Positions 1 through 51,509 of a stretch of DNA of 53,742 bases are shown piece after piece. The translations under genes were made by a program, and so were the position numbers. Source of the stretch: a virus (lineage: Duplodnaviria; Caudoviricetes); the IMG/VR virus record IMGVR_UViG_3300018757_000034, positions 1 to 53,742 of that record, one strand, 5' to 3'. How positions within the stretch are numbered: the stretch's first letter is position 1; each line of letters opens with the position of its first letter. Below the pieces are notes generated by a model, which searched no databases, was not told the DNA's origin, and saw only the letters and a list, made by a program, of their open reading frames with translations.

Positions 1-13
1 GGAGGACGGAACT

Positions 14-45
14 GTGAATGAAAAGGGATTTACACTGATAGAAAT
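14..45 (+). pseudogene. comGC: 5' fragment of competence major pilin comGC, interrupted by the prophage
   Basis: RBS GGAGG (1-5), GTG at 14, reads MNEKGFTLIE, the ComGC prepilin leader and cleavage motif KG|FTLxE. The expected hydrophobic helix is absent and the frame stops at 77-79. Confidence 0.85.
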
Positions 46-64
46 AAATAGGGGTAATAACCCC

Positions 65-1597
65 TTATTTTTGTTTTGAATTACTTTTGGAGTAATGCCA
101 GGGGAAGGGGTCTTCATTAACTAACACTTTCACATCAAAGTTTAAGCCTCCCACGTTTGCTTTTAATATGATATTGTCTCTATAAACAATACCTTCAGGA
201 AAGATTTTTCCCATTAGCATAGCTCTTTCGAGAGGAGAAAAATCACTATCAAAAAAATTAATTGACTCGAAAAGTTCGCTAAGAAAATCGTAACTCCACG
301 AATCACTTTTCAATGTTTCAAGCTTCGCTTTATCTCTTTTAAGTTGTGTTTGAAGATTTTCTGTTATGTTCTTGATTTCAACCTGTTTCTTATTTAATTG
401 ATCCTTTGTTAGATGATTGTCCAAGTATAAATCAATCAGCTTTTCATTTTTGGTGGTGTGCTTCTGGATGATTTGTTCATTGTTTTTTATGTTTTGTTCA
501 AGTTGAGTAATTTCTTCCTTTTCATTTTCAAGATTTACGTATTGTTTTGCTAATTCTTTACTGGTGACAATATCTTTAATTGCTTGTATGATATTACCCT
601 CAACTCTAACTGTATTTATACTCACATCACAAACTGAACCATCAGCTAGTCTCAATTTTCGGCCATGCTTTAGATAATAACGGGGAGACTCTTTGGTTCC
701 GTGGGCAGCAAGACTAATTTTTCTTCCACATTCACCGCATACAAAATATGTTCTTCTTAAAAGGTGAAGATCATTTCTCTTCCTACTGGTAACTTTATAT
801 TGATTTCCTCTTTTATTTCTTTCTATCTGAATTTTCTCCCAAGTTTCTTTGGTTCTTAACTTGGGAAAGATATTCTCTGCAGCAATCACTTCACCATTCG
901 CAAATGTTTTTTCTTGAACACCATGATATGCTTTTGTGGTCAGCCTAGTATGTACTAGATGCTCATTCCACATAATACCGGAAGGCGTTTTTGAGATTTT
1001 ATTAAGTTCATCTGTGATGCTTCTCATTCCTAGTTGTTCTTCCAGGTATAATCGATCAATGAATGGGATTACCCAAGCCCATTCTTTTTTTAATTTATAT
1101 TGTTCTTCCTTCTTATCATAATAATATTCATATGGAGCCTGGCCCCAGCCTTTACCTTCACGCATTCTTTGGCGTTTTCCACGCATCATTCTTTTCACAA
1201 GAGCTTTCTTTTCTCTCTTGGCAATTAAATTTTTAATGTCACTAACAAATTCTTGATCTTCATCATCTAGATCTACTATAGTTCCAGGTTCAGCGATTTT
1301 GACTTTGTTTTCACGAAGAGTAGACTTTAAATATTCCCATGATATTGTATCCAGACGAGAAAGTCTATCTTGATCAATGCAGACAACGACATCAATTTTA
1401 CCTTCTTCAACAATGTCGAGAAGGGCATTTAAGCCCTTTTTATGCAGCTTCCCACCAGATTCGATATCTTGAAATTCATCCACCAATCGCCATCTTTGTT
1501 GTTCCACATATCGGTGGAGTTCAGTTGTTTGCGCTCGTAGAGAATACTTTTCTTCTTGCATCTTTGTTGAAACACGTATATAGATGGCGGCTCGCAT
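65..1597 (-). CDS. Large serine recombinase (integrase)
   Basis: N-terminal YIRVST catalytic motif, DRLSR motif, recombinase domain, CGECG zinc ribbon, coiled coil. Confidence 0.95.
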   Translation of the reverse strand: MRAAIYIRVSTKMQEEKYSLRAQTTELHRYVEQQRWRLVDEFQDIESGGKLHKKGLNALLDIVEEGKIDVVVCIDQDRLSRLDTISWEYLKSTLRENKVKIAEPGTIVDLDDEDQEFVSDIKNLIAKREKKALVKRMMRGKRQRMREGKGWGQAPYEYYYDKKEEQYKLKKEWAWVIPFIDRLYLEEQLGMRSITDELNKISKTPSGIMWNEHLVHTRLTTKAYHGVQEKTFANGEVIAAENIFPKLRTKETWEKIQIERNKRGNQYKVTSRKRNDLHLLRRTYFVCGECGRKISLAAHGTKESPRYYLKHGRKLRLADGSVCDVSINTVRVEGNIIQAIKDIVTSKELAKQYVNLENEKEEITQLEQNIKNNEQIIQKHTTKNEKLIDLYLDNHLTKDQLNKKQVEIKNITENLQTQLKRDKAKLETLKSDSWSYDFLSELFESINFFDSDFSPLERAMLMGKIFPEGIVYRDNIILKANVGGLNFDVKVLVNEDPFPWHYSKSNSKQK

Positions 1598-1646
1598 AAA
1601 ATCAACCTTTCCATAAAATTGAAATTCAAACGAATTAACCAGGTAA

Positions 1647-2732
1647 TCATCTATTTAGTACTGATGATAAAACTTCTTCATTCACTTTAGTGATATTAAG
1701 ATAGCTAGTAATAACATCTTTTGATATTTTTAAGGTGACTGGCGAAAAGCTAGAAATCATTTTCTCAAAATCTAATTTTTTTTCTATAATTATTTCGTAT
1801 TGTAGTAATTCTAAATACCGCATAATATCCATAACATTATTAGGTTCACTTATAAAAACTCCAACTAAATGAGTTAATTTAGAAAGGTAATGTGGCTCTA
1901 TAAAGACCTCATGACCAATATCCTCAGTGTTAGTAATTTTCTGCAAGATAGGTCTCATATCTCGCACAAGGTTAATTTTATTAGTTAAGCCGTTTACACC
2001 CCCATGTATATATTCTAAAACTCCTTGAGGGATAGCTGAAATATTTCTATGCATAATATAATTGCAGCATTCGAAAATAGTTCTGCAGAATAAAATTACA
2101 ATTTCCATTAGTATGAACTTATGAGTCTTATCGTTGTATTTAAAGTTTTTATAGAAATCATTTTTTTCTAACATAACTAAAAGTGTCTTTAAGTTTGTTG
2201 GATTATCATTAAACCAATATCTCACGTTTAAGTATTTATAAATCATTGAATATTCGTCAGTAAGAGAATTAATTATTTCTAATTTGTTTGTATAATATTC
2301 TTCATTAAAAAGATTTGAAATCTTCGAGGTGTTGTATATTCTTTCCATCTCAATGAGATTGTTATTGTCTATTCCATAAATATTAAGTCTATCTAGAATG
2401 ACCCTGATGTTACGAGAGATTTTATTTTTTATTAAGTATCCTTTATTAGTTCCTACATAATCCATGACGCCTTTTAACCAAAAAACTCTTTCAACCATTT
2501 TTACATTCTTTCCGGACTTACAATCACCAAGTTGTTTAATGATATAAAAATCATTATTTACTTTCTCACCGTAAACATCCATATCGGTGAGGTCATGTCT
2601 TTTAGGTAATTGTGTTTTTGCATCCAGTTCATAAGCAATTACAGGAATTTCAATTCTAGTCCAAAAACCCATTTGCCACATAATTCTTTGAAATTTTATT
2701 TTTTGTTTAAAATCCCTATCATTAAAAAACAT
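1647..2732 (-). CDS. Putative PD-(D/E)xK nuclease, candidate defence effector
   Basis: N-terminal TDMDV...GDCKSG resembles the restriction-endonuclease-fold active site; AT-rich; overlaps the upstream gene by 11 nt. Confidence 0.6.
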   Translation of the reverse strand: MFFNDRDFKQKIKFQRIMWQMGFWTRIEIPVIAYELDAKTQLPKRHDLTDMDVYGEKVNNDFYIIKQLGDCKSGKNVKMVERVFWLKGVMDYVGTNKGYLIKNKISRNIRVILDRLNIYGIDNNNLIEMERIYNTSKISNLFNEEYYTNKLEIINSLTDEYSMIYKYLNVRYWFNDNPTNLKTLLVMLEKNDFYKNFKYNDKTHKFILMEIVILFCRTIFECCNYIMHRNISAIPQGVLEYIHGGVNGLTNKINLVRDMRPILQKITNTEDIGHEVFIEPHYLSKLTHLVGVFISEPNNVMDIMRYLELLQYEIIIEKKLDFEKMISSFSPVTLKISKDVITSYLNITKVNEEVLSSVLNR

Positions 2733-4041
2733 CCGGTTCTCCTCCGTTTTGGAAAAGTTTATTTAATACACTATTTATCTCACGGTTTTGTTCAGCTGTC
2801 GTATTCAATCCAATTCTTTGTTCTAAGGTTCTACTAATGGATTTAAGGTTCCCAAGGTTAGGGATGTATCCGTTAAATTCATACTCTGTAAGAAGTTTTC
2901 TTTCTTCCCAGGCTTCCCCAATGATGCCCCTAGTCAATTCTGAGTCAAAATCTGTGTCTGTAAACAAAATTTGTTGAGCTAATTTAACAACCATTCTAGC
3001 ATAATCTGTATCGGCTAAATAAAATCTATATCTTTTATTTCCTATTTCTTCTATTCTTCCTAATCCGCAATCTCGAAGGACACCATATTGAGCTTCAATA
3101 TCACTATGAGGAGTTTCGCCAATATAACCTCGGTCTAATAATCTTTGTAAAAATAATTCAGGAGATCTTAAAGCAGATATTTTAGAAAAACTTTCCCCGT
3201 ACCTAACGGCGGCAACAACGTATCTTGCATGTTTAAGTAGTTGTTTATCGTCTACTTCTGTAAATGGGCTAAACATAAAATTAACTTTGCCGCCCGAGGC
3301 TACAATAGCAGGAGTCTGTATTAAATTATTTTTCATAATTTCTAATAATATATCATTCTTAATTAAGTTTAAATCCGTTAATGGAAATCCAGGCTTAACC
3401 TTAAGTAGTTGAAGGGCATCCTGTACTTCTTTTTCATCATATTGGGACAAGAAATTCATAATTTGACTGGAGTTTTCTTCCATGTAAATTGGTGAAAAAA
3501 TCACTTGTTCTTCAGTGTTCTGATTTGTAAAGCTATCGATGAAACCACCTTCTTTTCCTATGAATAAAAGGTTATCAATATTATTTTGGTCCAAATCAAA
3601 GTCGGTTTTAAGTTTTCTTGGAGATAAACTAAACTTACTTAATCTATCTATAATTTCAATTGTTTGTTGTTCAAATTCTTGAGGGGAGCTATGTTTCCAA
3701 AACTCTCCTAACCGTTCATAAGTGGTGTCGAATTTATCCAATAAAACCTCGATCTTACTTGGACGATTTTTACTACCTTTTATACGTATGTATCTAATAT
3801 CCTCTAGAATATTCAATATCGAAATTAGCTCTGCAAACTGAATCTTTAATTTAGATGCTAAAACAACTAATCCATCAAAATTTTCAATTACATGAATGCC
3901 TCTTAAATGGGAGGCCAAACTTGCACACTTCCCTATTAAAATTGTTTGTCTAAGGTTTAAATCAAGATAAGGATCTTGATAACCTATAAGTCCAGTTTGG
4001 ATATCAAGACTTCTAACACCGATTTGTTTATTGTTAATCAT
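2722..4041 (-). CDS. Hypothetical 439-aa protein, partner of the putative nuclease
   Basis: Long AT-rich ORF with RBS (GAAGG); no recognisable catalytic motif. Confidence 0.75.
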   Translation of the reverse strand: MINNKQIGVRSLDIQTGLIGYQDPYLDLNLRQTILIGKCASLASHLRGIHVIENFDGLVVLASKLKIQFAELISILNILEDIRYIRIKGSKNRPSKIEVLLDKFDTTYERLGEFWKHSSPQEFEQQTIEIIDRLSKFSLSPRKLKTDFDLDQNNIDNLLFIGKEGGFIDSFTNQNTEEQVIFSPIYMEENSSQIMNFLSQYDEKEVQDALQLLKVKPGFPLTDLNLIKNDILLEIMKNNLIQTPAIVASGGKVNFMFSPFTEVDDKQLLKHARYVVAAVRYGESFSKISALRSPELFLQRLLDRGYIGETPHSDIEAQYGVLRDCGLGRIEEIGNKRYRFYLADTDYARMVVKLAQQILFTDTDFDSELTRGIIGEAWEERKLLTEYEFNGYIPNLGNLKSISRTLEQRIGLNTTAEQNREINSVLNKLFQNGGEPDVF

Positions 4042-4137
4042 CTATATACCTTCTTTCATTTAAATGAATAGCTTTGACTAGGTCTATATTATCAAAAATT
4101 TTTTTAAAAATTTCTTTTTCGACAAAAAAAGACAAAG

Positions 4138-4608
4138 TTAAGTATCATTATGTAAAGGAAGATTAATACCAATATTAATTCTTTCATGAGCAAATTCATT
4201 TGTAACATTAAAAAGAGTTGCAATCTCGCTTATAGCCTTGGTTTTTAAATAATTTAATCGCTTTAACATAAATAGGGGAACACAAAATTTATAAGCGAAA
4301 ATTTTGGCTTGCATCTCTTGTAACTCAGCAAAAAGGGGAGACATAATCAATTGATTCCCCTCGTGTCTAAGAGCATGACAAAGTTCATGACCAAAATCTT
4401 GCCACTGTTCTTGAGGGGAAATCCTATTATCAAGAATAATTACTCCATCATAATAACGACTACCTATGTTTAGAAATTCCACCTTTAATCCCAATCGATG
4501 CGAGATATCTAAGAGATCCAATTCATGAGGATTTGAAATTTTCATTTCCTTGTAAAATGCCTCAATCCAATCCTCGAGATGTGTATTATGGGGGACTATA
4601 GTTTTCAT
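4138..4608 (-). CDS. ImmA/IrrE-family metallopeptidase (anti-repressor, YqaB/XkdA-like)
   Basis: FGHELCH HExxH motif plus downstream E-x-QA; adjacent to the repressor. Confidence 0.92.
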   Translation of the reverse strand: MKTIVPHNTHLEDWIEAFYKEMKISNPHELDLLDISHRLGLKVEFLNIGSRYYDGVIILDNRISPQEQWQDFGHELCHALRHEGNQLIMSPLFAELQEMQAKIFAYKFCVPLFMLKRLNYLKTKAISEIATLFNVTNEFAHERINIGINLPLHNDT

Positions 4609-4634
4609 CTGTAGTTGCCTCCTTAAAAACTAAA

Positions 4635-4648
4635 GGAATATATGTTCG
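4635..4648 (-). promoter_or_regulatory. LexA (SOS) box-like site upstream of the ImmA gene
   Basis: Minus strand CGAACATATATTCC versus Bacillus consensus CGAACRNRYGTTCG. Confidence 0.65.
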
Positions 4649-4801
4649 CATTTAAGGTAAAAAGAAAAGCCCAAAGGCTTAGTAAAAGATGTAAACGATA
4701 TACATAATAAACCAACGAAAGGATATTGTCCATATTCAGAGCGGAAATTTAAAAAAGTTCACACTCTAAAGCTCTAAATAAAACAAAGTAATATATCATT
4801 A

Positions 4802-5149
4802 TTAGTTTGTTTTATCGCGGTTTTTTATGAACTCCCAGAACTGAATTAACTCATCAATTTTTTCTTCTGGTGCGTCTTTTAGATCCTTAAAGAGCAACTG
4901 AGTTTTAGGATTTAAAAGTTCCTTCCACATATCATCGTTAGATCCCTCATGTTCTTTTCCTGTCAAGAGAAAATCAATTGAAACATCATAAAGATCTGCC
5001 AATTTTTTAGTGGTTTCATAATCAGGTTGCCGTTTTCCTGATTCATAACTAGACAACGTGTTATTTTTTACACCGATTTTTTGGGCAACAAATTTTTGTG
5101 TTAACCCCGCTTTTTCACGTAAAAATTTCAATCTATCTGCATAATTCAT
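4802..5149 (-). CDS. XRE-family prophage repressor (ImmR/SknR-like)
   Basis: HTH LREKAGLTQKFVAQKIGVKNNTLSSYESGKRQP; divergent from cro. Confidence 0.93.
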   Translation of the reverse strand: MNYADRLKFLREKAGLTQKFVAQKIGVKNNTLSSYESGKRQPDYETTKKLADLYDVSIDFLLTGKEHEGSNDDMWKELLNPKTQLLFKDLKDAPEEKIDELIQFWEFIKNRDKTN

Positions 5150-5285
5150 GAATTATTCTCACTTCCCAATATTATCGCTTTATCGATATTACGCTTTACC
5201 GTAATTTTAACATTATTTATTTCTCTATTTGAGAAAAAATAATCACAATTCGAGAAAAAAATATCACAAAACGAGAACAAAAATC

Positions 5286-5314
5286 TTTACATTCTCGTTT
5301 TGTGAACTTATAAT
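5286..5314 (+). promoter_or_regulatory. Early lytic sigma-A promoter
   Basis: TTTACA-17 nt-TATAAT with an operator filling the spacer. Confidence 0.85.
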
Positions 5315-5354
5315 AAAATTGAATTCACGAAACGAGAACTTTGGGGGTGATAAT

Positions 5355-5558
5355 TTGAAGGAGATCTTGGGTTCCCGAATAAGAGAGCTAAGAAAAGAAA
5401 AAGGGCTAACTCAGTTTTATCTTGCTATTGAGTTGGGGTATAAACACTCTTCCATTATTAGTGAGATTGAATCCGGTAAGAAAAGTCTTAATGCCGAGAA
5501 GTTGCCCACTGTTGCTAAAGCGTTAGATGTAGAGATAAACAAACTTTTTTTTGAATAA
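5355..5558 (+). CDS. Cro-like XRE HTH protein
   Basis: TTG start after GGGGTGA RBS; HTH IRELRKEKGLTQ...ISEIESGK. Confidence 0.88.
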   Translation: MKEILGSRIRELRKEKGLTQFYLAIELGYKHSSIISEIESGKKSLNAEKLPTVAKALDVEINKLFFE

Positions 5559-5606
5559 AAAGTTCTCGAATTGTGAACTCCGAAAGACTATGAAAGAGGT
5601 GATCAA

Positions 5607-5798
5607 GTGAATCAACTTCCTGTTGATCCAGAGTTTCTCAAAAAGAGAATGGCTATCCCGTCAAAAATTGCTCAGTTGTCTTACTGCGATCCAGAGAAAG
5701 CAATTAAGTATATCCGCATTTGGGGGGAACATAAAAAGCCTGTATCTGAGTTATACACTGAATTAATTAATGCACTCATTGAAACTAAAGTTGTTTAG
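5607..5798 (+). CDS. Hypothetical phage protein
   Basis: RBS GAGGTGA, GTG start, 63 aa. Confidence 0.75.
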   Translation: MNQLPVDPEFLKKRMAIPSKIAQLSYCDPEKAIKYIRIWGEHKKPVSELYTELINALIETKVV

Positions 5799-5834
5799 TA
5801 ATCCTTTCTGTTAATAGCTTATCAAAAATTAAAT

Positions 5835-6392
5835 ATGACAAAGGTAGAAAAGGAGCGATTAGTAATGCAATTTGGTAGAGCATCACAAGCTGCCAAAAAC
5901 TCAAGGAAAGACGCAAAACTAACGCAGCAGCGAATGGCGATGGAAGACGATTTATTTATGTCAAGGGAGTCTATATCCCATCAAGAAAACGGCCGGCATC
6001 GGGTTCAACCAGAGGTGACCGAGTACTTTAGTGAAAAGCATAATGATCCGTGGTCAGCTATTGAGGCAGCTTCTGAGTATTCAGGGTGGGGGCCAATTAG
6101 ATTAGATGGCCCTGCTGCTGAGGTTAATCGTATGACAGCTGCTGTACAATCAACTATTCAAATGACAGAAGCAATCGATTCTTTAAAAGAGCATATGGAA
6201 ATTTTCACGATTAAGCCTGATTCTGTTTCAGATAAAACATCTATCGAAAAAACAATTCAAGAGTGTCTTGATGTTATAACTGCACTTACTCAATTTGTTG
6301 CAGTGATCTGCAAAGAATATTCGATTAACTGGTTAAAGATGTGGAGTAAACACAAGCTTAAGCTTTTAACACGAGGATTGATTACGAAATGA
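5835..6392 (+). CDS. YqaG-like HTH protein (start may be 5865)
   Basis: HTH with SRESISHQENGR; synteny with skin; RBS AAGGAG before ATG 5865. Confidence 0.75.
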   Translation: MTKVEKERLVMQFGRASQAAKNSRKDAKLTQQRMAMEDDLFMSRESISHQENGRHRVQPEVTEYFSEKHNDPWSAIEAASEYSGWGPIRLDGPAAEVNRMTAAVQSTIQMTEAIDSLKEHMEIFTIKPDSVSDKTSIEKTIQECLDVITALTQFVAVICKEYSINWLKMWSKHKLKLLTRGLITK

Positions 6393-6718
6393 CAGCTAAT
6401 CAACTTTTTAGGTCAGATTTGAAAAGAATGGTTGCTGAAGTAATTTGTATCGAAGAATTATCAAAAATGCTAGTTAAAGCTGTACATGAAGGGGATTCAA
6501 ACAAAGCGGAACGTTTTATTGGGGATATTCAAAAATCCCATAATGAGCTTAAGAGATTAAGAGAAAACAAGCGGAAATTTCCAGATGCTATGAAGATTAT
6601 GGAACAGTCTCAATCTTCTTCAGAACTAATCGAAAAAATTGGAAAGGATGTTTTAAATGAACTTTGTTTTTACTGTCAGTGGATTAAAGAAGGTTTCGGA
6701 TGTTCGTGTGCAGTGTAG
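6389..6718 (+). CDS. YqaH-like protein (C-terminus possibly frameshift-extended)
   Basis: EELSKMLVKAVHEGD resembles the skin YqaH core; ATGA overlap with the previous gene. Confidence 0.6.
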   Translation: MTANQLFRSDLKRMVAEVICIEELSKMLVKAVHEGDSNKAERFIGDIQKSHNELKRLRENKRKFPDAMKIMEQSQSSSELIEKIGKDVLNELCFYCQWIKEGFGCSCAV

Positions 6719-6848
6719 GAAAGCGAGAGAAAATCCAGCGGGGCTATTAATGGTAGAGGCAGAAATAAAAGGATACTTAAGGAGAAAAGCAGCAAGCCAC
6801 CACGCTCACTGCTTTCGCCATAAAAACTACTGGACGAATTTATTATAA
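6657..6848 (+). CDS. Hypothetical phage protein
   Basis: RBS GAAAGGA, ATG at 6657. Confidence 0.6.
   Translation: MNFVFTVSGLKKVSDVRVQCRKARENPAGLLMVEAEIKGYLRRKAASHHAHCFRHKNYWTNLL
6784..6835 (-). ncRNA. Candidate antisense sRNA 1 (~50 nt)
   Basis: Minus-strand TTGCCG(6870-6865)-17-TATAAT(6847-6842); ends in AAAGCAG...CTGCTTTT hairpin. Confidence 0.6.
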
Positions 6849-6987
6849 AGCTTTATTTGAAAATCGGCAAGCCAGCTTGTGCTTGTCGTCATGGCTGGGG
6901 ACGTATCTATTCCATTTGTATACCCTCCATGTACCGTTCCTGGCTGTGACGATGCGCGCAAGCATCAGAAAGAAGGTGAAATTATGG

Positions 6988-7179
6988 GTGCCATTTGATT
7001 CTGTAGAGGAATTGGTACATGCCACAAAAGTTGTTGGAGAACTTCGTATGGCCATTTGTGCGGAGAAAACTAGAGCCGAGTTGTTTTCAAATGACCAAAG
7101 CAGCAAAGAGGTTCTTCAAGAAGCGTTAGACCAGATTGCTCTCGATCTTTCAGAAGCGTTAAGCAAACACAAATTGTAA
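6988..7179 (+). CDS. Hypothetical phage protein (start uncertain)
   Basis: 3' part of track ORF 6877..7179; GTG at 6988 after GAAGGTGA. Confidence 0.5.
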   Translation: MPFDSVEELVHATKVVGELRMAICAEKTRAELFSNDQSSKEVLQEALDQIALDLSEALSKHKL

Positions 7180-14299: not shown

Positions 14300-14944
14300 T
14301 TGGATATTGTTTTTCCTATTAATGCAAAAGAAATAATAAATAAAGAAATACCCTTAAATATTCGTCGCAACTTTGTTAATTTAATACAAACTGGTTATGA
14401 CTTAGTAACACAAAGTATGAATGAGACATCTTTTTTTAAATGGGATATTGGTAAGAGGCATAGAGGTTACTTAGACCATATTGCAGTGGAATATGTTCTT
14501 TATGAAGCAGCATTAAACGGAACAGTTAATTTAAAACCTTCTGTAGTACCTAATTCTAATCGTTCGGCTTTGCATCTTGAGTTAGAAAGTCAGAATATGA
14601 AATTGACAGTAAGCCGTGTCTCAGATAAATTTAAAACCGCTAGAAATGCTAAATTTAGATCAATACTCCAAAAAAGCAATCAACTATATTGGACTGAAAC
14701 AAATGAAATAAAGGAAGAACCTGCTTATTTACAGTTAACTCATGGAAATGAAGACGGAAAATTGTCATTTGCTAATCTGGGGATACCTGATAATAAAGGT
14801 GGATGGTATGATTTTCTTGATTTAACTAAGGAGTTACATATTGTCAGGAAAAAATTACAAGAGGAAAATGAAATTAAACCTGAACAATTGGTGGGTTTTA
14901 AAAATTTTGCTCAAGGAGTGCTAAAAAGTGGAGGATCGTCTTAA
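14300..14944 (+). CDS. Hypothetical protein, putative toxin of a RosmerTA-like pair
   Basis: AT-rich; overlaps the HTH-peptidase gene. Confidence 0.6.
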   Translation: MDIVFPINAKEIINKEIPLNIRRNFVNLIQTGYDLVTQSMNETSFFKWDIGKRHRGYLDHIAVEYVLYEAALNGTVNLKPSVVPNSNRSALHLELESQNMKLTVSRVSDKFKTARNAKFRSILQKSNQLYWTETNEIKEEPAYLQLTHGNEDGKLSFANLGIPDNKGGWYDFLDLTKELHIVRKKLQEENEIKPEQLVGFKNFAQGVLKSGGSS

Positions 14945-16088
14945 ACGATTCTCGTCCATAGTTCCCGAAAGAATAAAGATGGGACGAGAAGCCAGAGGAC
15001 TAACAACCAGAGAATTCGCAGAAATGATCGGAGTTTCTCACCAAATGATATCCAAGTATGAAAAAGGTCAATCAATTCCAGGATCACAAGTTCTTGATAA
15101 AATGGTTAAGGAATTGAACCTGCCATTTAGGTTCTTTTTGAAAACTAAGAAGGCAGCAGGAGAAGACAAAACAGTTTTCTTTAGAAGTAGAGCAGTTTCT
15201 TCTGTCAAATTAAAAAAAATACATGAAATCAAACTTGAGTGGTTAAAGGAAATTCAATATTATTTAGAAGATATTCTTGATTTTCCAAAAGTGAACTTTC
15301 CTAATCTTATTAATCAAAAAAATTTTTTTCAACCAGTACATTTTGAAGAAATTGATGAACTGGCAATGACCCTGAGAAAGTTTTGGAATCTAAATGAAGG
15401 TCCGATAAGTAATCTACTTTTGTTATTGGAGAAAAACGGTGTAATAATTAGTAAAGTAAATTTTTCAGATATAAAAATCGATGCCTGTTCTGAATGGGAT
15501 GAGAATGGAAGACCCTTTATTCTTTTAGGGAATAATAAACAATCGTCATCAAGAACTCGATTCGACTTAGCACATGAATTAGGTCATTTAATTTTACACC
15601 GGTATATTAAAAAAAGTGAATTTAACAATAAACAAATATATAAAAGAATAGAGGAAGAAGCTGATCGATTTGCTTCAGCATTTCTTATGCCTAGATCTTC
15701 GTTTATTGAGGAATTTGTAGGATCTTCCTTAGACTTTTTTGTTTTAATGAAAAAGAGATGGAAAGTGTCAATTCAAGCTCTTGTTTACAGGGCATCAGAT
15801 TTGGGTTTAATATCTGATTATCAAAAGTCTTATCTATGGAGGCAAATCTCTAGTAAGGGATGGAGAAAATCAGAACCATTTGAAGAGCTTATTGTAGAGG
15901 AACCTGTAGTTCTAAAACAAGCTTTTGAATTAATAATTAATCATGAAGTGAAGAGTAAAGGACAATTAGTTGATGATTTGTCTTTAAATCGTGAGGACAT
16001 AGAGGAGTTATCTAATGTTGAAAAAGGATTTTTGTTAGAATTTAATGAAAAGCCTTTGGAAGATAATATTCTTAACTTCAAAATTTAA
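14928..16088 (+). CDS. XRE-HTH plus ImmA/IrrE Zn-peptidase fusion (RmrA-like)
   Basis: N-terminal HTH; RFDLAHELGH; EEEADRFASAFLMP. Confidence 0.9.
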   Translation: MEDRLKRFSSIVPERIKMGREARGLTTREFAEMIGVSHQMISKYEKGQSIPGSQVLDKMVKELNLPFRFFLKTKKAAGEDKTVFFRSRAVSSVKLKKIHEIKLEWLKEIQYYLEDILDFPKVNFPNLINQKNFFQPVHFEEIDELAMTLRKFWNLNEGPISNLLLLLEKNGVIISKVNFSDIKIDACSEWDENGRPFILLGNNKQSSSRTRFDLAHELGHLILHRYIKKSEFNNKQIYKRIEEEADRFASAFLMPRSSFIEEFVGSSLDFFVLMKKRWKVSIQALVYRASDLGLISDYQKSYLWRQISSKGWRKSEPFEELIVEEPVVLKQAFELIINHEVKSKGQLVDDLSLNREDIEELSNVEKGFLLEFNEKPLEDNILNFKI

Positions 16089-16090
16089 AA

Positions 16091-16156
16091 GTCCAAGACG
16101 GAGAGCCTGCGGACACTAAACCAGCGCAAAAAAGCGTTTGTTTAGTGTCTTTTTTA
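16091..16156 (+). terminator. Conserved motif copy 1 overlapping an intrinsic terminator before arpU
   Basis: GTCCAAGACGGAGAGCCTGCGGACACT; stem GACACTAAAC/GTTTAGTGTC plus T-run. Confidence 0.8.
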
Positions 16157-16175
16157 TTTTAAGGAGGGGTGGATC

Positions 16176-16559
16176 TTGTTAGCTAAACAATTGGCTTTTC
16201 TACCGCCTATAGACGAAAAAGAAGTCAGAAATACGATGATAAGGGAGCTGAAAAGGTACAAGGCTTTGAAGGTCCAGCTTGAAAACCGGAAAGAACGGGA
16301 AGCAGCTGGGATGAATAACCTTTTCCCCAAGCTCAGAGACCAGAACTCTTTAAATGAATTGAAAGTTTGTCAGATGGACAGGGCGCTTAAACAAAGCCTT
16401 GATGTTGATGAATTAAAGATTATAAAGGCCAAGTATCTCTCTTCCCAAAAAATAAAGGACATTGAGATTTATATGGAGATGGGGTTGAAAAAGGACAAAT
16501 ACTATCAGATCAAACGGCAGGCCATTTATAATCTGGCCACAGCTCTCGGGATAATATAG
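16176..16559 (+). CDS. ArpU-family late transcriptional activator
   Basis: IIKAKYLS...KDIEIYMEMGLKKDKYYQIKRQAIYNLATALG; position at the end of the early region. Confidence 0.9.
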   Translation: MLAKQLAFLPPIDEKEVRNTMIRELKRYKALKVQLENRKEREAAGMNNLFPKLRDQNSLNELKVCQMDRALKQSLDVDELKIIKAKYLSSQKIKDIEIYMEMGLKKDKYYQIKRQAIYNLATALGII

Positions 16560-16577
16560 CGTGGCTTATTTAAAAAA

Positions 16578-16695
16578 CCGCAATAGCATTTAAATTTAAT
16601 CTCCTAAAATCACCCCCACTAAATCAATGATTCTTAATCCCTTCTTAAATTGCTATTGCGGGGGTAACCGAAAATTTAATTGCGGTGGTCCGAAC
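16578..16695. promoter_or_regulatory. ComA-box-like sites upstream of rap
   Basis: CCGCAA (16578), TTGCGG (16656), TTGCGG-TGGT-CCGAAC (16680-16695) versus consensus TTGCGG-N4-CCGCAA. Confidence 0.65.
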
Positions 16696-16764
16696 GTCTT
16701 TTTCAAATGGTGGAATATTGTTAAAATTTACATCATTAGTATAGTTAAGGGAAGGGTGAAAAGG

Positions 16765-17892
16765 TTGGATAGAATCTCATCTGCAGAAGTGGGGATGAAA
16801 ATTACTGAGTGGCACCAGCATATTCAAAAATTCAATGTGACAGACGCCGAAATGCTTAAAGCTGAAATTGAAAGGGATATAGAGGTTATGGAAGAAGATC
16901 AGGATTTACTAATCTATTATCAATTGATGGCTTTCCGCCATAGTATAATGATTGAATATATAGCACCTTCAGGTGAAAAACAGATGGAATTATCAGAATA
17001 TTTAAAGAGGATTGAAGGGAATAAACGAAAATTAGATCACATGCTCACGTATTATTATAATTTTTTTCGAGGGATGTATGAATTTAGGAATGGAGAATAT
17101 ACGAAGGCAATTACTTATTATAAAAGAGCTGAACGTCAATTTCCTGCTATATCAGATTCGATTGAGAAAGCGGAATTTTACTTTAAAATGGCTGAAGTCT
17201 ACTACCATATGAAAATGACCCACGTTTCAATGTATTTTGCAGAGCGAGCATATAACATTTACAAAAAATATGAACTCTATTCTGTTCGCCTTATTCAGTG
17301 TCATTTTGTCATTGCTGGAAATTATGATGATTTAGAGAATCATGAGAAGGCTCTTCCACACCTAAATAAAGCACTTAGAGGCGCAGAACTATTAAAAAAG
17401 AAAAATCTACAGATATACGCTTCTGCTTTTTACAATCTTGGCAACTGCTATCACAAAATGGACAACTTAAACAAGGCTGCAAGATATATTGAACAAGCTC
17501 TAGTTCAATATAAAAAATTAAAATCAAAAAATTTGCCGCAAGCATACCACGACTTGGCGCTAATCAATTTCAAACAAAATAAGTATGATAAAGCCAGGGA
17601 TTATTACCGCAAAGGGCTGAGAAGTGCTGTGGAACTTAAAGATAATCTGTTTATAAGCCTTTTTGAAGCTCTCGAGTCACTTTATATAAAACGTGGTGAA
17701 ACTACATCGCTTTTTAAAATTTTCAATCGATTGGAAACAAGCAAAGGATTTCCGTATTTGGAAGAGCTGGCATTGTTAGCCGGCACCTATCTAGATTATA
17801 ATGGAAAAACAGAGGATAGTCTCATCTGTCTTAAAAAGATGGTCTATGCTCAAAAGCAAATATTGAAGGGGGAATGTTTGTATGAAGTCTAA
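16765..17892 (+). CDS. Rap-family TPR aspartate phosphatase (RapE/RapA-like)
   Basis: SAEVGMKITEW...MEEDQDLLIYYQLMAFRH; TPR repeats; likely TTG start. Confidence 0.95.
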   Translation: MDRISSAEVGMKITEWHQHIQKFNVTDAEMLKAEIERDIEVMEEDQDLLIYYQLMAFRHSIMIEYIAPSGEKQMELSEYLKRIEGNKRKLDHMLTYYYNFFRGMYEFRNGEYTKAITYYKRAERQFPAISDSIEKAEFYFKMAEVYYHMKMTHVSMYFAERAYNIYKKYELYSVRLIQCHFVIAGNYDDLENHEKALPHLNKALRGAELLKKKNLQIYASAFYNLGNCYHKMDNLNKAARYIEQALVQYKKLKSKNLPQAYHDLALINFKQNKYDKARDYYRKGLRSAVELKDNLFISLFEALESLYIKRGETTSLFKIFNRLETSKGFPYLEELALLAGTYLDYNGKTEDSLICLKKMVYAQKQILKGECLYEV

Positions 17893-18019
17893 AATGAAGA
17901 TCGGTTTAGGGATTATGATAATTGGACTTGGTTTTCTCAGTCATTTTTCGAACAACGATGATATGAACACAGCTTCAAGAAACATCACAAGCGCACCCAG
18001 TCATTATTTTGTTGTTTAA
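17882..18019 (+). CDS. Phr propeptide, PhrE-like, predicted mature peptide SRNIT; not in the ORF track
   Basis: MKSKMKIGLGIMIIGLGFLSHFSNNDDMNTASRNITSAPSHYFVV; overlaps the rap stop; PhrE carries internal SRNVT. Confidence 0.9.
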   Translation: MKSKMKIGLGIMIIGLGFLSHFSNNDDMNTASRNITSAPSHYFVV

Positions 18020-18048
18020 CTAAAAAATGAGTTTTTGGATTATCCTTT

Positions 18049-18076
18049 TAGCCGTTTTATTAGCGGCTTTTTTTTA
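18049..18076 (+). terminator. Intrinsic terminator after phr
   Basis: AGCCG...CGGCT plus T-run. Confidence 0.75.
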
Positions 18077-18222
18077 TGTATTTCAAACACTCAACAAATA
18101 GGTTTAATGACCTGATCCCAAGGATTCATTTTCACGGATTGACAGGATTTATTCACCAATTCTTTTCTATAAAGTGGTAAAATATTTCGTGGTATGTCAC
18201 TTTTGTATTAGAGGAGAATGCT

Positions 18223-19887
18223 ATGAAAACTCTTGATGTTCAGGCGTTGCACAAAGCCATTGATCAAACGCTGGAACAATTAAAACATCAATCAGACGAA
18301 TTCGCCAAAGTCAAAAAAGCCGTAGAGGGTATTACATCACTTGATGATGCTTTACAGGGAAAAGGAGGAGACGCAATTCGTGCGTTTTATAAGGAATGTC
18401 ACACCCCTTTTCTACAGTTCTATGATACTTTCATAGAGGAATACAGTTCCACGCTAAAGAAAATGAAAAGCACGTTGAATTCCCTTGAACCAAACCACAA
18501 CGGATTTATATCGCAAACCTTCCTCGAACACGAGCTGGAACAAGGGGTGAATGCAGCCGACCGCACAACGAAGCGTTTGGTATCGAAAACAAATGCCACG
18601 ATCGCAAAAGTCAGCCACATTGTCGATTTGCCCGATTTGAATGACAGCGGTTTTCATGAACAGAATCAGAAAGCCTTAAAGGAAATCAATCAGACAATTG
18701 AAAAGCTACATGCTTTTGACCGCGAACAAACAAGCGCTCTTAAAACTGCTGAACAAGACCTTGAAACGATGCAAAAATACATCACAGAGCTTGAGAAAAT
18801 GTACACAGGCCCAAAAATCGAGATCACAAGCTATAAAAAAGGCTCAATTTTAAAACCGGATGAGAATACAAACATTAACGGTCCGGTCGGCGGTCTAAAA
18901 GGAGCGTTAGAAAATGCTGAGCCTTCTCCGATGGAAATCATGCTAAAAAAATTGTCCGATCAAGAAGCATCTGAAGTCGATTCACTTACCAAAGCAGACC
19001 ATTCTAAAAAGATTGATACAGGTATTCGCATCATCAAAGGCAAAGTATATAATATGAAGGGATACAAAAAGCTCGGTTCTGTCGATGTCACCGATGAAAT
19101 CGGTACAGGCAAGGACTTCGTCGGCGGTTCGTACATGCTTTATTCAAACGGTCAAATTGTCCGAAAATACATATCCGGCGGTGAAGTGAAATACGAACTT
19201 GTCAGTCGCATACCGGAAAGCAGAGTGAAGAAAAGCAACATTGAAAAAGCTCTTGATTGGGCTAAAGACACAGTTGGAGAATTGTCCGGTGGTTATGATG
19301 GTTATAGAGCGATAACAGGTGTTGACCCTGTGACTGGTGAAAAACTATCCGTCACTGACCGTATCCTGTCCGGTGTTTCTGTCATACCCGCTACTAAAGT
19401 AGTCAAGGTAGGAAAATATGTTTTCAAAGCGAATAAAGGTGCGAAGACGGCGAAAAGGGTTTCGACCAGTACTGCTAAAAGGCCAGGGGGATATCTCAAG
19501 GAAGATGTTGATGAACATGGCTATTTAAGCCCAGGGGTTAATCGTGCACCAGGTAACAAAAATATTGCTTCTGATAATCGGGTACAGTCTCACCACCCAA
19601 TACAAAATGAATGGGCGAAAAGATGGGCTAAAGAAGGTGGATTTGATTATAACGAAAAGAAAGCATCCGCAATACTTCTCCCGTCAAGCTCTGGCCTTTC
19701 ACACGCAAAAATCTCTTCGATGCAAAGAAAGCGAAGAAAAATTGAGGGATTTAATACTGACATACGTTATGAATTTAATGTGAGTTATAGGGAAATGATT
19801 GAAGCAGGTGTTGATCAAAAAGCTACCCGAAAAGCAATGAAGGATGCATATAAATATTTCGATGGTTTGGGAGGTTTTGTAAAGTGA
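18223..19887 (+). CDS. LXG polymorphic toxin (T7SS substrate, YqcG-like N-terminus) with putative HNH-type SHH nuclease tip
   Basis: LQGKGG LXG motif; pre-toxin TG segment GYDGYRAITGVDPVTGEKLS; C-terminal QSHHPIQ...H. Confidence 0.9.
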   Translation: MKTLDVQALHKAIDQTLEQLKHQSDEFAKVKKAVEGITSLDDALQGKGGDAIRAFYKECHTPFLQFYDTFIEEYSSTLKKMKSTLNSLEPNHNGFISQTFLEHELEQGVNAADRTTKRLVSKTNATIAKVSHIVDLPDLNDSGFHEQNQKALKEINQTIEKLHAFDREQTSALKTAEQDLETMQKYITELEKMYTGPKIEITSYKKGSILKPDENTNINGPVGGLKGALENAEPSPMEIMLKKLSDQEASEVDSLTKADHSKKIDTGIRIIKGKVYNMKGYKKLGSVDVTDEIGTGKDFVGGSYMLYSNGQIVRKYISGGEVKYELVSRIPESRVKKSNIEKALDWAKDTVGELSGGYDGYRAITGVDPVTGEKLSVTDRILSGVSVIPATKVVKVGKYVFKANKGAKTAKRVSTSTAKRPGGYLKEDVDEHGYLSPGVNRAPGNKNIASDNRVQSHHPIQNEWAKRWAKEGGFDYNEKKASAILLPSSSGLSHAKISSMQRKRRKIEGFNTDIRYEFNVSYREMIEAGVDQKATRKAMKDAYKYFDGLGGFVK

Positions 19888-20540
19888 TTGATTTATCAAT
19901 GGTTTCAGATTTGATAAAAAATATTCCAGCAAGTGAAAGTGAAATTCAAGAGTCAGAAGATATTCTACAAGCTAAATTACCAAATGTATATAAGGATTTA
20001 TTAAGAAATACAAATGGTTTTTCAATTGGTGGTGAGGTGGCTATTTATGGTACAGAAGATATTGTGGAAAGAAACGAGACATGGGAAGTAGATGAATATG
20101 CAAGAGGATATGTCGCTATTGGAGATGATGGCGGAGGTAATGTTTTCTTAATGTTTCAAAATGAAAAGGAAACAGAAGTATTGATTGTTGACTCTGGGGA
20201 TATGGATCCAAGCCATGCTACTGTAATCACTTCAGATTTTATTGAATGGGTGAATAGTGGTTGTATTATAAGGGAATCGGAACAGAAAACAATAAGTGAG
20301 CCACCTGATACATGCAATATAGTGTTAGCAAAGCCCCTTGATGGAGGATTGAAAGATTTAATAAAAATAAAGAATATATTAGGTATTGAGATTTCAACAG
20401 CGGATCTACTAAAGGGTTCAAAAAATCCCCCTTATTTATTAATGGAAAGATTCCCATATGGAAAGGCAAAGAAACTAATTGAAAAATTAGGACCCATTGG
20501 TACGGTGCTGAGATTAGAGCCGATTGTCAAAGATAACTAA
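19884..20540 (+). CDS. SMI1/KNR4-family immunity protein
   Basis: PASESEI..E..L..KLP..YK..L..TNG and IGDDGGGN motifs; coupled to the toxin. Confidence 0.9.
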   Translation: MIDLSMVSDLIKNIPASESEIQESEDILQAKLPNVYKDLLRNTNGFSIGGEVAIYGTEDIVERNETWEVDEYARGYVAIGDDGGGNVFLMFQNEKETEVLIVDSGDMDPSHATVITSDFIEWVNSGCIIRESEQKTISEPPDTCNIVLAKPLDGGLKDLIKIKNILGIEISTADLLKGSKNPPYLLMERFPYGKAKKLIEKLGPIGTVLRLEPIVKDN

Positions 20541-21315: not shown

Positions 21316-21816
21316 GTGATATTTATGAGAGATAGTAATGAAAAAATTGAGTTTGGTAAAATCAAAACCATAGAAATATATTTGCAACGATTTCAAAAGA
21401 ACCTACATAAAAAAAGCTTAGCTGATCAGATTGCATTTAAAGATGAAATCAAAAAACGTCATGATAAAAAGGAAATTCAAATGTTCCTGGGCAGGCTGGA
21501 AGATCAGATTGAAAATAAAAAAGCTTTAAATCACTTTACTACTGCTTTTTTTGCAATTCTATCTTTTGTTTTGGGAAGTACATTGAATTATGGTCTTAAA
21601 CTTGTGACTGAGGCAGATGCAGATGTTGCTCCTACAATTATCCTTTTGGTTTTTTATGCTGCCGTAGTAATTTGGTTTGTGCTATCAGGTTGGGAATCAA
21701 GGAACCTTAAAAAGCTGAGCCTTTATAAAAGGCTATTACAAGAGTGTTTAGATGAATCACCGGAAAAAAGACATTTTAGAAGAGTACAAAAAAGTACCAG
21801 ACACCTTACTAAATAA
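21316..21816 (+). CDS. Two-TM membrane protein (moron)
   Basis: Two hydrophobic helices; AT-rich; own terminator. Confidence 0.75.
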   Translation: MIFMRDSNEKIEFGKIKTIEIYLQRFQKNLHKKSLADQIAFKDEIKKRHDKKEIQMFLGRLEDQIENKKALNHFTTAFFAILSFVLGSTLNYGLKLVTEADADVAPTIILLVFYAAVVIWFVLSGWESRNLKKLSLYKRLLQECLDESPEKRHFRRVQKSTRHLTK

Positions 21817-21827
21817 GGTGTTTTTTT
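21801..21827 (+). terminator. Intrinsic terminator
   Basis: ACACCTTA-CTAAA-TAAGGTGT plus T-run. Confidence 0.8.
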
Positions 21828-21844
21828 ATTGGAGGCGATACATC

Positions 21845-22366
21845 ATGGATATTAGAACCATACCAGTAGAAAAGATTAACCCTGCCCCATATAATCCGCG
21901 CATTGATCTGCAGCAAGTTGATCCAGAATACGAAGCACTTAAACAGTCTATGACTCGTTTTGGTGCAGTCGAACCATTAGTCTGGAATGAAAGGACTGGC
22001 AACCTTGTAGGCGGCCACCAACGCTTTAAAATCCTCATGGAAGAAAATCCAAAGACACTCCTGGTTTCAGTTGTAAATCTGGATGAGGCTGAGGAAAAAG
22101 CGCTCAACCTGGCTTTAAATAAGATCAGCGGCGACTGGGATGATTACAAACTTGAACAGGTTTTAGAAGACCTGCAACACAATAATTTTGATCTATCCCT
22201 TACAGGCTTTTCAGAAAGTGAAATAGATGAAATCTTGGGAGATCTGGCTGAGCATGAAGGCAACGGAGGAAAAATCAATGACAGCCAGGAATTAGACCTG
22301 GATGATTATGAAGATGATCATTTCCAACATACTTGCCCGAAATGCGGATTTTCATTTAACGAATAG
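21845..22366 (+). CDS. ParB/sulfiredoxin-like protein with C-terminal CPKCG
   Basis: PAPYNPR, LVGGHQR, LNKISGDWD motifs; ATG after GGAGG. Confidence 0.88.
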   Translation: MDIRTIPVEKINPAPYNPRIDLQQVDPEYEALKQSMTRFGAVEPLVWNERTGNLVGGHQRFKILMEENPKTLLVSVVNLDEAEEKALNLALNKISGDWDDYKLEQVLEDLQHNNFDLSLTGFSESEIDEILGDLAEHEGNGGKINDSQELDLDDYEDDHFQHTCPKCGFSFNE

Positions 22367-22374
22367 GTGATTAC

Positions 22375-23403
22375 ATGGAAAAGAAAGAATACCGTTGGAA
22401 GTTGGCCGATTTAAAAAACATCAAGAAAAATGGCCTTAAAGTATTCAGTACATTCTCTTGCGGCGGAGGTTCCTCTATGGGCTATAAGCTCGCCGGCTAC
22501 GATCTTTTGGGGAACTGTGAGATCGATCCGCAAATGATGAAGATTTACAGGAAGAATCATAACCCGAAATATCCTTTTCTTATGGACATCAGAGACTTTA
22601 ACAAAATGGAAAATCTGCCTGATGAATTGTTCGATTTAGATATTTTTGATGGTTCCCCGCCCTGCAGCGTGTTTTCTATTGCGGGGGATCGGGAAAAGGC
22701 TTGGGGAAAAGAAAAAGCCTTTCGTGAAGGACAGGCCAAACAGTCACTTGATGATCTATTTTTTCATTACCTTGATGCTGTTGAAAGGCTGAGGCCCAAA
22801 ATCTTTGTGGCCGAGAATGTAAAAGGTATGGTGAGCGGAAACGCTAAAGGATATGTAAAGCTCGTAATTGAACGGGCAAAAGAAATAGGATACGATGTTC
22901 AGCTGTTCTTGCTGAATGCTGCCACAATGGGAGTCCCGCAACGTAGAGAGCGGGTCTTTTTTATTGGCCGAAGGAAGGACTTGAATTTACTGCCACTTAA
23001 ATTGTCCTTCAATGAGCCACCGATTGTATATAAAGAATTCAGAAGCGGCCATGGTGCAAGGCTTAAAGAAACATCAAAGCTTTATAAAAGATGGGTGAAG
23101 CGACGGCCGCCGGATAATAATGTGGGAGACATCACGAAAAGGATTGAAGGGAAAGAATCTAATTTCAATACGATTTTAGTGAAAAATAGCCTTGTCCCGC
23201 CTACTCTCGCAAGTGGTTCGGTCTTTGTCCGTTATGATGAGCCCTACTATATCTCTGAACGAGATATCATTTTGATGCAATCTTTCCCACTGGATTATGA
23301 TTTTATGGACGCATCTGTTCAATATGTTTGTGGGATGAGTGTTCCTCCGGTCATGATGAAAAAAATATCGGAACAGATTTACAAACAGTGGTTTGAAAAA
23401 TAA
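22375..23403 (+). CDS. Orphan DNA (cytosine-5) methyltransferase
   Basis: Motif I FSCGGG, IV GSPPC, VI ENV, VIII QRRERVF, X GMSVPP. Confidence 0.95.
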   Translation: MEKKEYRWKLADLKNIKKNGLKVFSTFSCGGGSSMGYKLAGYDLLGNCEIDPQMMKIYRKNHNPKYPFLMDIRDFNKMENLPDELFDLDIFDGSPPCSVFSIAGDREKAWGKEKAFREGQAKQSLDDLFFHYLDAVERLRPKIFVAENVKGMVSGNAKGYVKLVIERAKEIGYDVQLFLLNAATMGVPQRRERVFFIGRRKDLNLLPLKLSFNEPPIVYKEFRSGHGARLKETSKLYKRWVKRRPPDNNVGDITKRIEGKESNFNTILVKNSLVPPTLASGSVFVRYDEPYYISERDIILMQSFPLDYDFMDASVQYVCGMSVPPVMMKKISEQIYKQWFEK

Positions 23404-23825: not shown

Positions 23826-24695
23826 ATGGCGAGACCGCGTGATCCAAGACGTGACGAAGCGTTCCGTTTATGGAAAGAAAGCAGCGGAACCAAGAAATTA
23901 AAAGACATCGCGGATGAATTGGGCGTCTCAAGCAGCACCGTCCGCAAGTGGAAAGCAACAGATAAATGGGAAGATGAATTCAAAAGGAGCGCTCCTAAAC
24001 CGAATGGGAGCGCTCCTTTTCGTCCCGGCGCTCCAAAAGGGAATAAAAACGCCAAAGGAAACAAGGGCGGAAATGTACCGCCTGGAAACCAAAATGCTAA
24101 AGGGAATAGGGGCGGTGCTGCACCAAAAGGGAATAAAAATTCTGTCCGTACCGGTGAATATGAAACAATCATGTGGGATTTTTTAACCGAGGATGAGCGA
24201 CAGCTGTTCGGGGAAATCGAAACGGACCCGCTCTTTCAAATTGATCTAACCATCAGGGAGTTAAACCTTCGGGAGCGGAGAATGATGCAGCGGATCAGCC
24301 GGATAGAAAGCGGCCTATCTGAAAAACAGCGCCGCGTGCTGCAACAAATGCGCAAGGTCAAGGACATCGTTCAAACCCCGGATAAGAATGGACTAGTCAA
24401 GCCCGTCCCGGTTATGAATGAGCGTCTTGTCGTGACTGAAATTGAGGAAACCGAGATGCGGGCTATTGATGATATTTTGAATATCGAGGAGGCACTCACC
24501 CGGGTAACGGATAAGCGGCTGAAGGCCATTCGTCAGAAATACGATATGATCCGCTTAATGGATGAACATGAATTGAAGCTCCGCGGTATCTATCTTTCAA
24601 ATGAGACAAAACAAGTTGAGCTTGAACGCTTGACTGCCCGCCCTGTGGACAATTCTGTGAATATCACAATTACTCGTAAGGGTGACGGCAAATGA
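23826..24695 (+). CDS. Terminase small subunit (YqaS/XtmA-like)
   Basis: N-terminal [12 protein letters not shown] repeats, upstream of TerL. Confidence 0.93.
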
Positions 24696-51367: not shown

Positions 51368-51509
51368 ATCATTACCTCCCATTTTAGGTTATTTATAGAA
51401 TCAATGTAAATTATATCAAAATGAGTATTATCATTCAATAACTGTTTTATTTGTGGTAAAATTTGTGGAAGTTAGGTATGAGATCAACCGAATTTTTAGA
51501 AGGAGTGTG

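Follow-up and report, generated by a model that had tools for sequence, protein, structure and literature searches.

Two adjoining genes in the lysogeny module of a Bacillus prophage encode a putative winged-helix reader and a predicted PD-(D/E)xK nuclease, a candidate two-subunit defence system

The IMG/VR virus record IMGVR_UViG_3300018757_000034 (Duplodnaviria; Caudoviricetes), whose 53,742 nucleotides (nt) were analysed in full and are hereafter called the window, contains two overlapping genes, A and B, located between the gene for an ImmA/IrrE peptidase (immA) and that for the integrase (int). An initial annotation, made from the letters of the DNA only, had put them forward as a candidate anti-phage system. 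Our results indicate that A and B encode what looks like a winged-helix reader and a restriction-fold nuclease, that neither protein matches a named family in the libraries searched, and that the two genes travel together on prophages, plasmids and bacterial chromosomes. We tentatively explain them as prophage cargo that encodes a restriction-like defence nuclease of two subunits, both rare and mobile, an explanation to which we give slightly less than an even chance.

Organization of the cassette

The lysogeny genes form a string on a single strand, headed by the repressor and ending with the integrase gene:

4802–5149, minus strand: HTH_3 repressor, encoded by the first gene of the lysogeny string (Pfam HTH_3, 5e-17)
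4138–4608, minus strand: ImmA/IrrE M78 peptidase, the upstream neighbour of the cassette (Pfam Peptidase_M78, 5e-17)
4042–4137, minus strand: AT-rich spacer of 96 nt between immA and A, containing the ribosome binding site of A (read from the sequence)
4049–4057, minus strand: ribosome binding site of A, GAAAGAAGG, a few bases before its ATG (read from the sequence)
2722–4041, minus strand: gene A, an open reading frame (ORF) of 439 amino acids (aa) for a winged-helix protein of an unnamed family
2739–2745, minus strand: strong ribosome binding site of B, GGAGGAG, within the 3' end of A (read from the sequence)
1647–2732, minus strand: gene B, an ORF of 361 aa for a predicted nuclease subunit of an unnamed family
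65–1597, minus strand: large serine recombinase (integrase) of 510 aa (Pfam Resolvase, 3.1e-24; Recombinase, 1.1e-7)

As initially described, A and B are AT-rich, overlap and share the orientation of the repressor. Their ORFs have 11 nt in common (2722–2732), the serine recombinase gene lies 49 nt downstream of B, and the module as a whole (1597–4188) has 30.0% GC (32.7% in A and 27.7% in B), compared with 40.9% in the remaining window. Of 512 sliding windows of equal length, not one falls below this value, and the cassette is the AT-richest part of the window. The location of the ribosome binding site of B inside the last codons of A, together with the 11-nt overlap, suggests that both genes are translationally coupled. 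A scan for terminator-like sites found none between immA, A, B and int, so that transcription continuing from the lysogeny operon is no less plausible than a promoter of their own, and it is reasonable to infer that A and B would be co-transcribed with the lysogeny genes. The promoter-like region that had been proposed upstream of A did not hold up, because a search with promoter consensus sequences detected none on the minus strand between immA and A, and overall such sites show no enrichment (17, versus 19.6 ± 4.8 in shuffled sequences). No RNA run was among the nine public runs listed. Both genes are under purifying selection, with dN/dS values of 0.046–0.103 in three close pairs, and their homologues with 40–59% identity support that both are real genes.

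B has a predicted PD-(D/E)xK nuclease domain

B had been described as PD-(D/E)xK-like on account of the motif TDMDV...DCKSG, and this assignment is sustained by its predicted fold and by the conservation of the catalytic residues. The AlphaFold2 (AF2) model of B is confident (predicted local distance difference test, pLDDT, 87; predicted template-modelling score, pTM, 0.88) and separates two domains:

2328–2732, minus strand: PD-(D/E)xK restriction-endonuclease-like domain, alpha/beta, B residues 1–135 (AF2 model)
2574–2588, minus strand: TDMDV, B residues 49–53, first catalytic acidic motif, on strand 43–58 of the model
2511–2525, minus strand: DCKSG, B residues 70–74, (D/E)xK motif, at the end of strand 64–72 of the model
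1650–2327, minus strand: all-helical C-terminal domain, B residues 136–361, about 225 residues with no recognised fold (AF2 model)

The N-terminal domain presents, in this predicted structure, the alpha-beta-beta-beta-alpha-beta core of the PD-(D/E)xK superfamily, with the conserved D...(D/E)xK residues placed on strands 2 and 3. Searches for homologues of B yielded 18 clusters in one case and 37 in another, and in the 33 homologues compared, down to 18% identity, L48, T49, D50, D52, V53, D70 and C71 do not vary, and the conservation of K72 is at least 90%.

Foldseek comparisons with the B model retrieved restriction-endonuclease-like matches with weak E-values (best 1.8e-3), and the matches in BFVD were phage proteins labelled 'restriction endonuclease' that align with the N-terminal nuclease domain only (E of at least 1.7e-3). 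The Atlas model of B showed a template-modelling (TM) score of 0.75 to a cluster also labelled 'restriction endonuclease', 26% of whose members carry Mrr_cat. Weak, sub-threshold matches to this family (PF04471) appeared in 13 of the 33 members of the B family (best E 5.1e-4); B from the window matched no Pfam family at E ≤ 1 and did not reach the gathering cut-off of Mrr_cat. Judging from its sequence, B would thus be at most a distant relative of Mrr_cat. Structure comparison also revealed a resemblance of the N-terminal domain to the effector nucleases Card1 and Can2. The fold scores are middling, yet all of them indicate one fold and the motif is concordant with it; together, the model shows a restriction-endonuclease-like domain with intact predicted catalytic residues.

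A contains predicted winged-helix domains

The AF2 model of A is poor as a whole (pLDDT 59) and includes two segments, modelled at about 80, with structural matches to winged-helix domains:

3739–3978, minus strand: winged-helix domain 1, A residues ca. 22–101
3484–3696, minus strand: winged-helix domain 2, A residues ca. 116–186

The structural matches of the second segment were to LmrR/PadR (8.9), Z-alpha (8.2–8.8) and ArsR/MarR (about 8). Foldseek and Atlas comparisons with A retrieved multi-winged-helix proteins, namely TFIIIC, TFIIE, RPC34/62, UFL1, ScpB, Nse and ArsR/TrmB, none of them at significant levels, and the two winged-helix units are weakly alike (hhalign probability 45%, E 2e-4). 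These model-based matches show at least two winged-helix domains in A, and a count of four comes only from the secondary structure of the poor model. Family scans detected neither a nucleoside triphosphatase (NTPase) motif nor any other enzyme family in A. The initial annotation had seen in A a sensor or scaffold; given its resemblance to a winged-helix array, a role in recognising DNA is no less likely.

Homologues of A fall into 52 clusters, and the family comprises 323 representatives at E ≤ 1e-3, and 78 at E ≤ 1e-30, among 1.84 billion cluster representatives. Two of these homologues, P0021 (656 aa) and P0075 (577 aa), have N-terminal extensions of around 217 and 160 residues, respectively, which may reflect either genuine fusions or gene calls that read through from upstream. 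A also has an N-terminal R10/D13 motif and a conserved C-terminal tail, which reads GGEPDVF in the close clade.

A and B are a conserved and sporadically distributed pair

Loci were collected through A, from one-genome-per-species contigs, plasmids and genome searches, and were then examined for B with profiles. B starts at, or a few bases from, the end of A and on the same strand in 13 of 14 distinct loci other than the window (L001–L003, L005–L011, L015, L022 and L023), in agreement with the earlier proposal of a two-gene unit, with A being alone in the remaining one (L016). The Bacillota loci are from Lachnospiraceae, Sedimentibacter, Fictibacillus, Heliobacterium, Priestia, Clostridium perfringens pJIR3844 and two further genomes, and other loci are from the Actinomycetota (Mycolicibacterium) and the Pseudomonadota (Roseomonas). 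Likewise, in tblastn comparisons, eight of the 11 plasmid records with A had B directly downstream and on the same strand, and eight of the 10 with B had A upstream; in one of the two remaining B records, the upstream gene is A-like (hhalign probability 99.8%).

The identity matrices of A and B are highly correlated (Pearson 0.95 for 13 pairs and 78 pairwise comparisons, a value that none of 2000 Mantel permutations reached), which shows the two to be jointly inherited, as judged from sequence identities to which common ancestry also contributes. B evolves faster than A, with mean identities of 52% and 63%, respectively, within the close clade. The pair is also sporadic, being present in two of 91 genomes from the family of Bacillus haynesii NRRL B-41327, and in two of 401 genomes sampled from its phylum, with this strain itself counted in both cases.

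A contig from B. haynesii NRRL B-41327 carries a locus that is 100% identical to the window over gene A. In this assembly (L019/L020, on G001:C30 and G001:C3, and the end of L004), B is split by two contig ends, with residues 2–183 on one contig and 153–361 on the other. A break of the assembly in the AT-richest stretch explains the 213-aa, 100%-identical fragment P0004, B not being a broken gene.

The cassette occupies a variable cargo slot

We found in IMG/VR three sister prophages (L012–L014) with integrases that are 94–98% identical to that of the window, and blastn comparisons with them defined the limits of the module:

1597–4188, minus strand: cargo module swapped with respect to the sister prophages L012–L014

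Similarity with the sister prophages (86–94% upstream and 91–97% over the integrase gene) stops at position 4189, within the end of immA, and resumes at 1596, with the start of the integrase. The module is thus swapped between similar flanks, indicating that the immA-int junction is a cargo slot, as the initial annotation had assumed. In prophages, defence genes tend to be grouped next to those for immunity and integration, and what we found here agrees with such cargo: a variable slot, a foreign composition and known defence genes close to homologues of the pair.

In the sister prophages, the slot is occupied by a gene of ca. 395 aa (L012:4758–5954, L013:4773–5954 and L014:4773–5953), which in L014 is split into ORFs of 104 and 306 aa. 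Neither Pfam nor PADLOC yielded a match to it, and a relationship with A or B was rejected (hhalign probabilities of 0.4% and 0.03%, respectively). We consider it a second candidate cargo or defence gene.

Additionally, a 14-nt direct repeat (13 of 14 positions identical) brackets the cassette exactly, with one copy (1644–1657) over the stop codon of B and the other (4035–4048) over the start codon of A. No such pair at both gene ends appeared in 300 Markov-1 random sequences, which contained by chance about five repeat pairs per sequence elsewhere. A comparable repeat at the gene ends is absent from nine of 11 other loci (best 12-mer match, 7–9 of 12); L010 equals the window with 11 of 12, and L015 has 10 of 12. 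The break with the sister prophages (1596 and 4189) does not coincide with this repeat, which may be due to chance or be a recombination scar.

Homologues of the pair are found beside defence genes

The neighbourhoods were examined in a small sample of about 15 loci, all found through A, and are consistent with the defence association that had been expected, because homologues lie beside Thoeris, NgoPII restriction-modification (R-M), RnlAB, ABC-3C, Schlafen-like and toxin-antitoxin genes. For example, L011 contains the Thoeris genes ThsA (SIR2-STALD) and ThsB, then an AAA ATPase, with a radical-SAM gene and a large methylase downstream of the pair. In both L007 and L010, the pair has been inserted behind prfA-prmC, and an NgoPII endonuclease and a C5 methylase come next. 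L005 holds RnlA/RnlB, together with HNH-CTD11 and AAA_23/DUF2326, which are parts of ABC-3C. Genes for a prophage lysin, a repressor and a Schlafen/HATPase_c_4 protein occur in L006, phage-like nucleotide-metabolism genes in L009 and an Rpn-family nuclease near the pair in L015. On a Mycolicibacterium plasmid (L003), Phd/RelE genes adjoin the pair. No methyltransferase, NTPase or other gene was common to the inspected loci.

The pair in L003 also adjoins a cluster annotated in the record as a ThiF adenylyltransferase, a multiubiquitin-domain protein and ImmA/IrrE (L003:8752–12420), which looks like a ubiquitin-like conjugation defence module.

The pair does not correspond to a named system

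In accordance with the initial annotation, which could not match the pair to any named system, A and B from the window had no meaningful match in Pfam, PADLOC-DB 2.0.0, PHROGs or NCBIfam. With PADLOC-DB 2.0.0, A retrieved just PRTase_III-A (17 bits over 79 residues) and B nothing, and the comparison of 66 A and 33 B members yielded scattered matches only, in at most five members and with E of at least 3.9e-4. Member-by-member family scans returned just the weak Mrr_cat matches for B and scattered winged-helix matches for A, and the comparison of profiles A1 and A2 with the sequences of solved structures did not exceed chance level (E of at least 0.21). Full-text literature searches retrieved no description of the pair, nor any paper mentioning one of six RefSeq accessions of homologues. 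Neither of the two proteins nor the DNA from 1 to 7000 had a match in 50,697 phage records, and A had no relative in IMG/VR, in a search from which the window's own record may have been hidden.

The closest likeness is with Type IV enzymes of the EcoKMrr type, which also combine a winged-helix DNA reader with a PD-(D/E)xK nuclease and have no cognate methyltransferase; in Mrr, as in DpnI, winged helices read DNA for the PD-(D/E)xK domain. However, reader and nuclease are there a single polypeptide and here two separate ORFs, A is a multi-domain protein of 439 aa, B possesses an extra helical domain of 225 residues, and B from the window reaches no Mrr_cat score.

Comparisons with the Dnd and Ssp systems gave no sequence match of A to any of their models in NCBIfam or PADLOC, libraries that hold DptG and SspB models, and the neighbourhoods of the pair contain no DndF/H, SspA/C/D or methyltransferase partner. 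Type II and IIS R-M enzymes, such as those like FokI, need a cognate methyltransferase, whereas there is none in the module 1597–4188. Likewise, no methylase family is common to seven genome loci other than the window, and those methylases that we observed belong to other systems or are kilobases away. The DNA-binding domain of FokI is not among the structural matches of A, and no multi-domain match to FokI, DndG or SspB was listed, although the quality of the A model is too low to compare several domains at once. Triple winged-helix modules are described for FokI and DndG/SspB in a published study (PMC10853773).

END nucleases, according to a published study (PMC12191111), are single genes without a conserved partner in which a PLD or NucS-like PD-DExK nuclease is fused to an inactive EndoIII (iEndoIII) sensor. 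None of the 33 B members gave a signal for the HhH-GPD sensor (Pfam, E ≤ 1), B residues 123–361 had an hhalign probability of 0.1% in a weak test against 11 HhH-GPD proteins from five genomes, and EndoIII does not appear among the listed structural matches of the whole of B. An iEndoIII identity of the helical domain is therefore not supported by these comparisons.

The PDC-S02 model of PADLOC matched two of the 33 B members (E 0.0081) and no A member, and is an analogue rather than the same family as A-B. Finally, Card1, Can2, Cdn1, VC1899 and AF1548 have sensor domains for cyclic oligonucleotides, of the CARF or SAVED type, that are absent from A and B, and neither cyclase nor CRISPR genes accompany the pair in the neighbourhoods examined. 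The pair thus combines a putative winged-helix reader and a restriction-fold nuclease from two unnamed protein families, and B possesses a helical domain without a recognised fold.

Possible modes of action

The combination of an intact predicted nuclease with a winged-helix partner, probable coupling and mobility makes a two-subunit restriction-like enzyme the most economical mechanism, and this is the explanation that we favour, with the caution expressed above. A and B would be transcribed in the lysogen together with the repressor, immA and int. A would bind B, perhaps via the helical domain of B, and would supply the recognition of nucleic acids, as do the winged-helix parts of Mrr, DpnI and FokI and as has been proposed for DndG, whereas B would cleave phage or plasmid DNA entering the cell. 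The pair is not accompanied by a methyltransferase, so that self DNA would have to escape not through host methylation but through recognition of something confined to foreign DNA, for example a modification or a structure.

Several observations weigh against this explanation. The model of A is poor and structural matches back only two of the proposed winged-helix units, with the remaining segments of A showing no internal sequence similarity (hhalign probability under 3%). The pair is not a common phage gene, as indicated by the lack of matches in phage collections, and some of its copies are in contexts that do not resemble defence loci, between a MobF relaxase and a coupling protein (L002) and near sugar-metabolism genes (L008). 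A linear plasmid from Streptomycetaceae carries A without B (L016; CP108401.1:163075–164349). Moreover, A served to find the loci, and the ratio of 13 in 14 therefore tells more about the frequency with which B follows A than about the converse. Lastly, a dependence on DNA modification is one option among others and a guess. The orphan A in L016 adjoins genes for a TetR regulator and a cellulase.

The main rival, clearly less probable than not, is an abortive-infection or toxin-antitoxin-like module, in which A would restrain a toxic nuclease B until a phage cue, upon which B would degrade DNA indiscriminately and the infected lysogen would be killed or arrested. The resemblance of the nuclease domain to Card1 and Can2, together with neighbourhoods rich in toxin-antitoxin genes, speaks for such a mode. 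However, A is large and better conserved than B (63% versus 52%), unlike typical fast-evolving antitoxins, and is built from domains of the DNA-binding type; besides, one plasmid keeps A without B, no orphan B was found among the inspected loci, and no ligand-sensing domain was recognised in A or B.

A bolder version of the restriction-like explanation, which we consider rather unlikely, is that the pair defines a new family of two-component immune nucleases found across phyla, in which A would read a non-methyl feature of foreign DNA and license an Mrr-like B through its helical domain. Candidate features would be hypermodified bases, atypical structures or complexes of phage protein with DNA. 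If true, this would be a recognition principle distinct from Type I–IV restriction, used by prophages and plasmids against rivals.

It is improbable, although not incompatible with an anti-phage role, that the pair is mainly a weapon in the competition among mobile elements or a stabiliser of them, acting through cleavage of rival plasmids or prophages or through post-segregational killing. A and/or B occur in 13 plasmid records, some of them conjugative or mobilizable; in L002 the coupling protein next to the pair is of the type IV kind, Phd/RelE adjoin it in L003, and the pair was not found in the phage databases searched. Against this, chromosomal copies are in classical anti-phage islands, with Thoeris, R-M or RnlAB, and the copy in the window is in a prophage lysogeny module, whose usual cargo is superinfection defence. 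A function in the life cycle of the phage itself (recombination, control of excision or DNA processing) is very unlikely, given that the sister prophages with near-identical integrases hold an unrelated gene in the slot, a swap that makes a role in integration improbable, that most homologues are not beside integrases and that the composition of the cassette is foreign to the remaining prophage.

Should the restriction-like pair protect against phages, it would be a compact nuclease system of two genes, whose protein families are unnamed in any library and which is carried by prophages, plasmids and defence islands of the Bacillota, Actinomycetota and Pseudomonadota. In these Bacillus prophages, the immA-int junction would then be a slot worth mining for cargo, the more so as the sister phages hold there another gene of unassigned role. 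The splitting of reader and nuclease could help to explain how restriction enzymes without a methylase choose their targets, and might yield a programmable or modification-specific nuclease, with a modest practical value until a phenotype is shown.

The remaining prophage

The rest of the window is, from PHROGs matches, a complete-looking tailed prophage, with a recombination exonuclease, DnaD- and DnaB-like replication genes, RusA and methyltransferases, as well as the following:

23826–25990: terminase (PHROGs; portal and head genes were also found)
33640–35037: tail sheath (PHROGs)
36685–41940: tape measure (PHROGs; the baseplate was also found)
49452–50405: endolysin (PHROGs)

No tRNA gene was found in the window. 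Minus-strand genes beyond the endolysin (50615–53742) have no or weak matches in PHROGs; they occupy 50615–51382, 52147–52884 (an excisionase/HTH-like PHROG) and 53056–53742, the last running off the window.

A second possible accessory block lies in mid-prophage (14300–20537, from PHROGs). It includes a 386-aa fusion of a helix-turn-helix (HTH) domain with an ImmA-like metalloprotease (14928–16085; phrog_2439 and phrog_87) and a transcriptional activator (16176–16556), followed by proteins of 421, 554 and 218 aa whose only matches are to PHROGs without an assigned function. The region 21752–23400, located immediately upstream of the terminase, encodes a protein with a ParB-like nuclease domain and a DNA methyltransferase. 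From these gene assignments, methylation of the phage DNA by the phage itself is probable, a relevant point should A-B read DNA modification.

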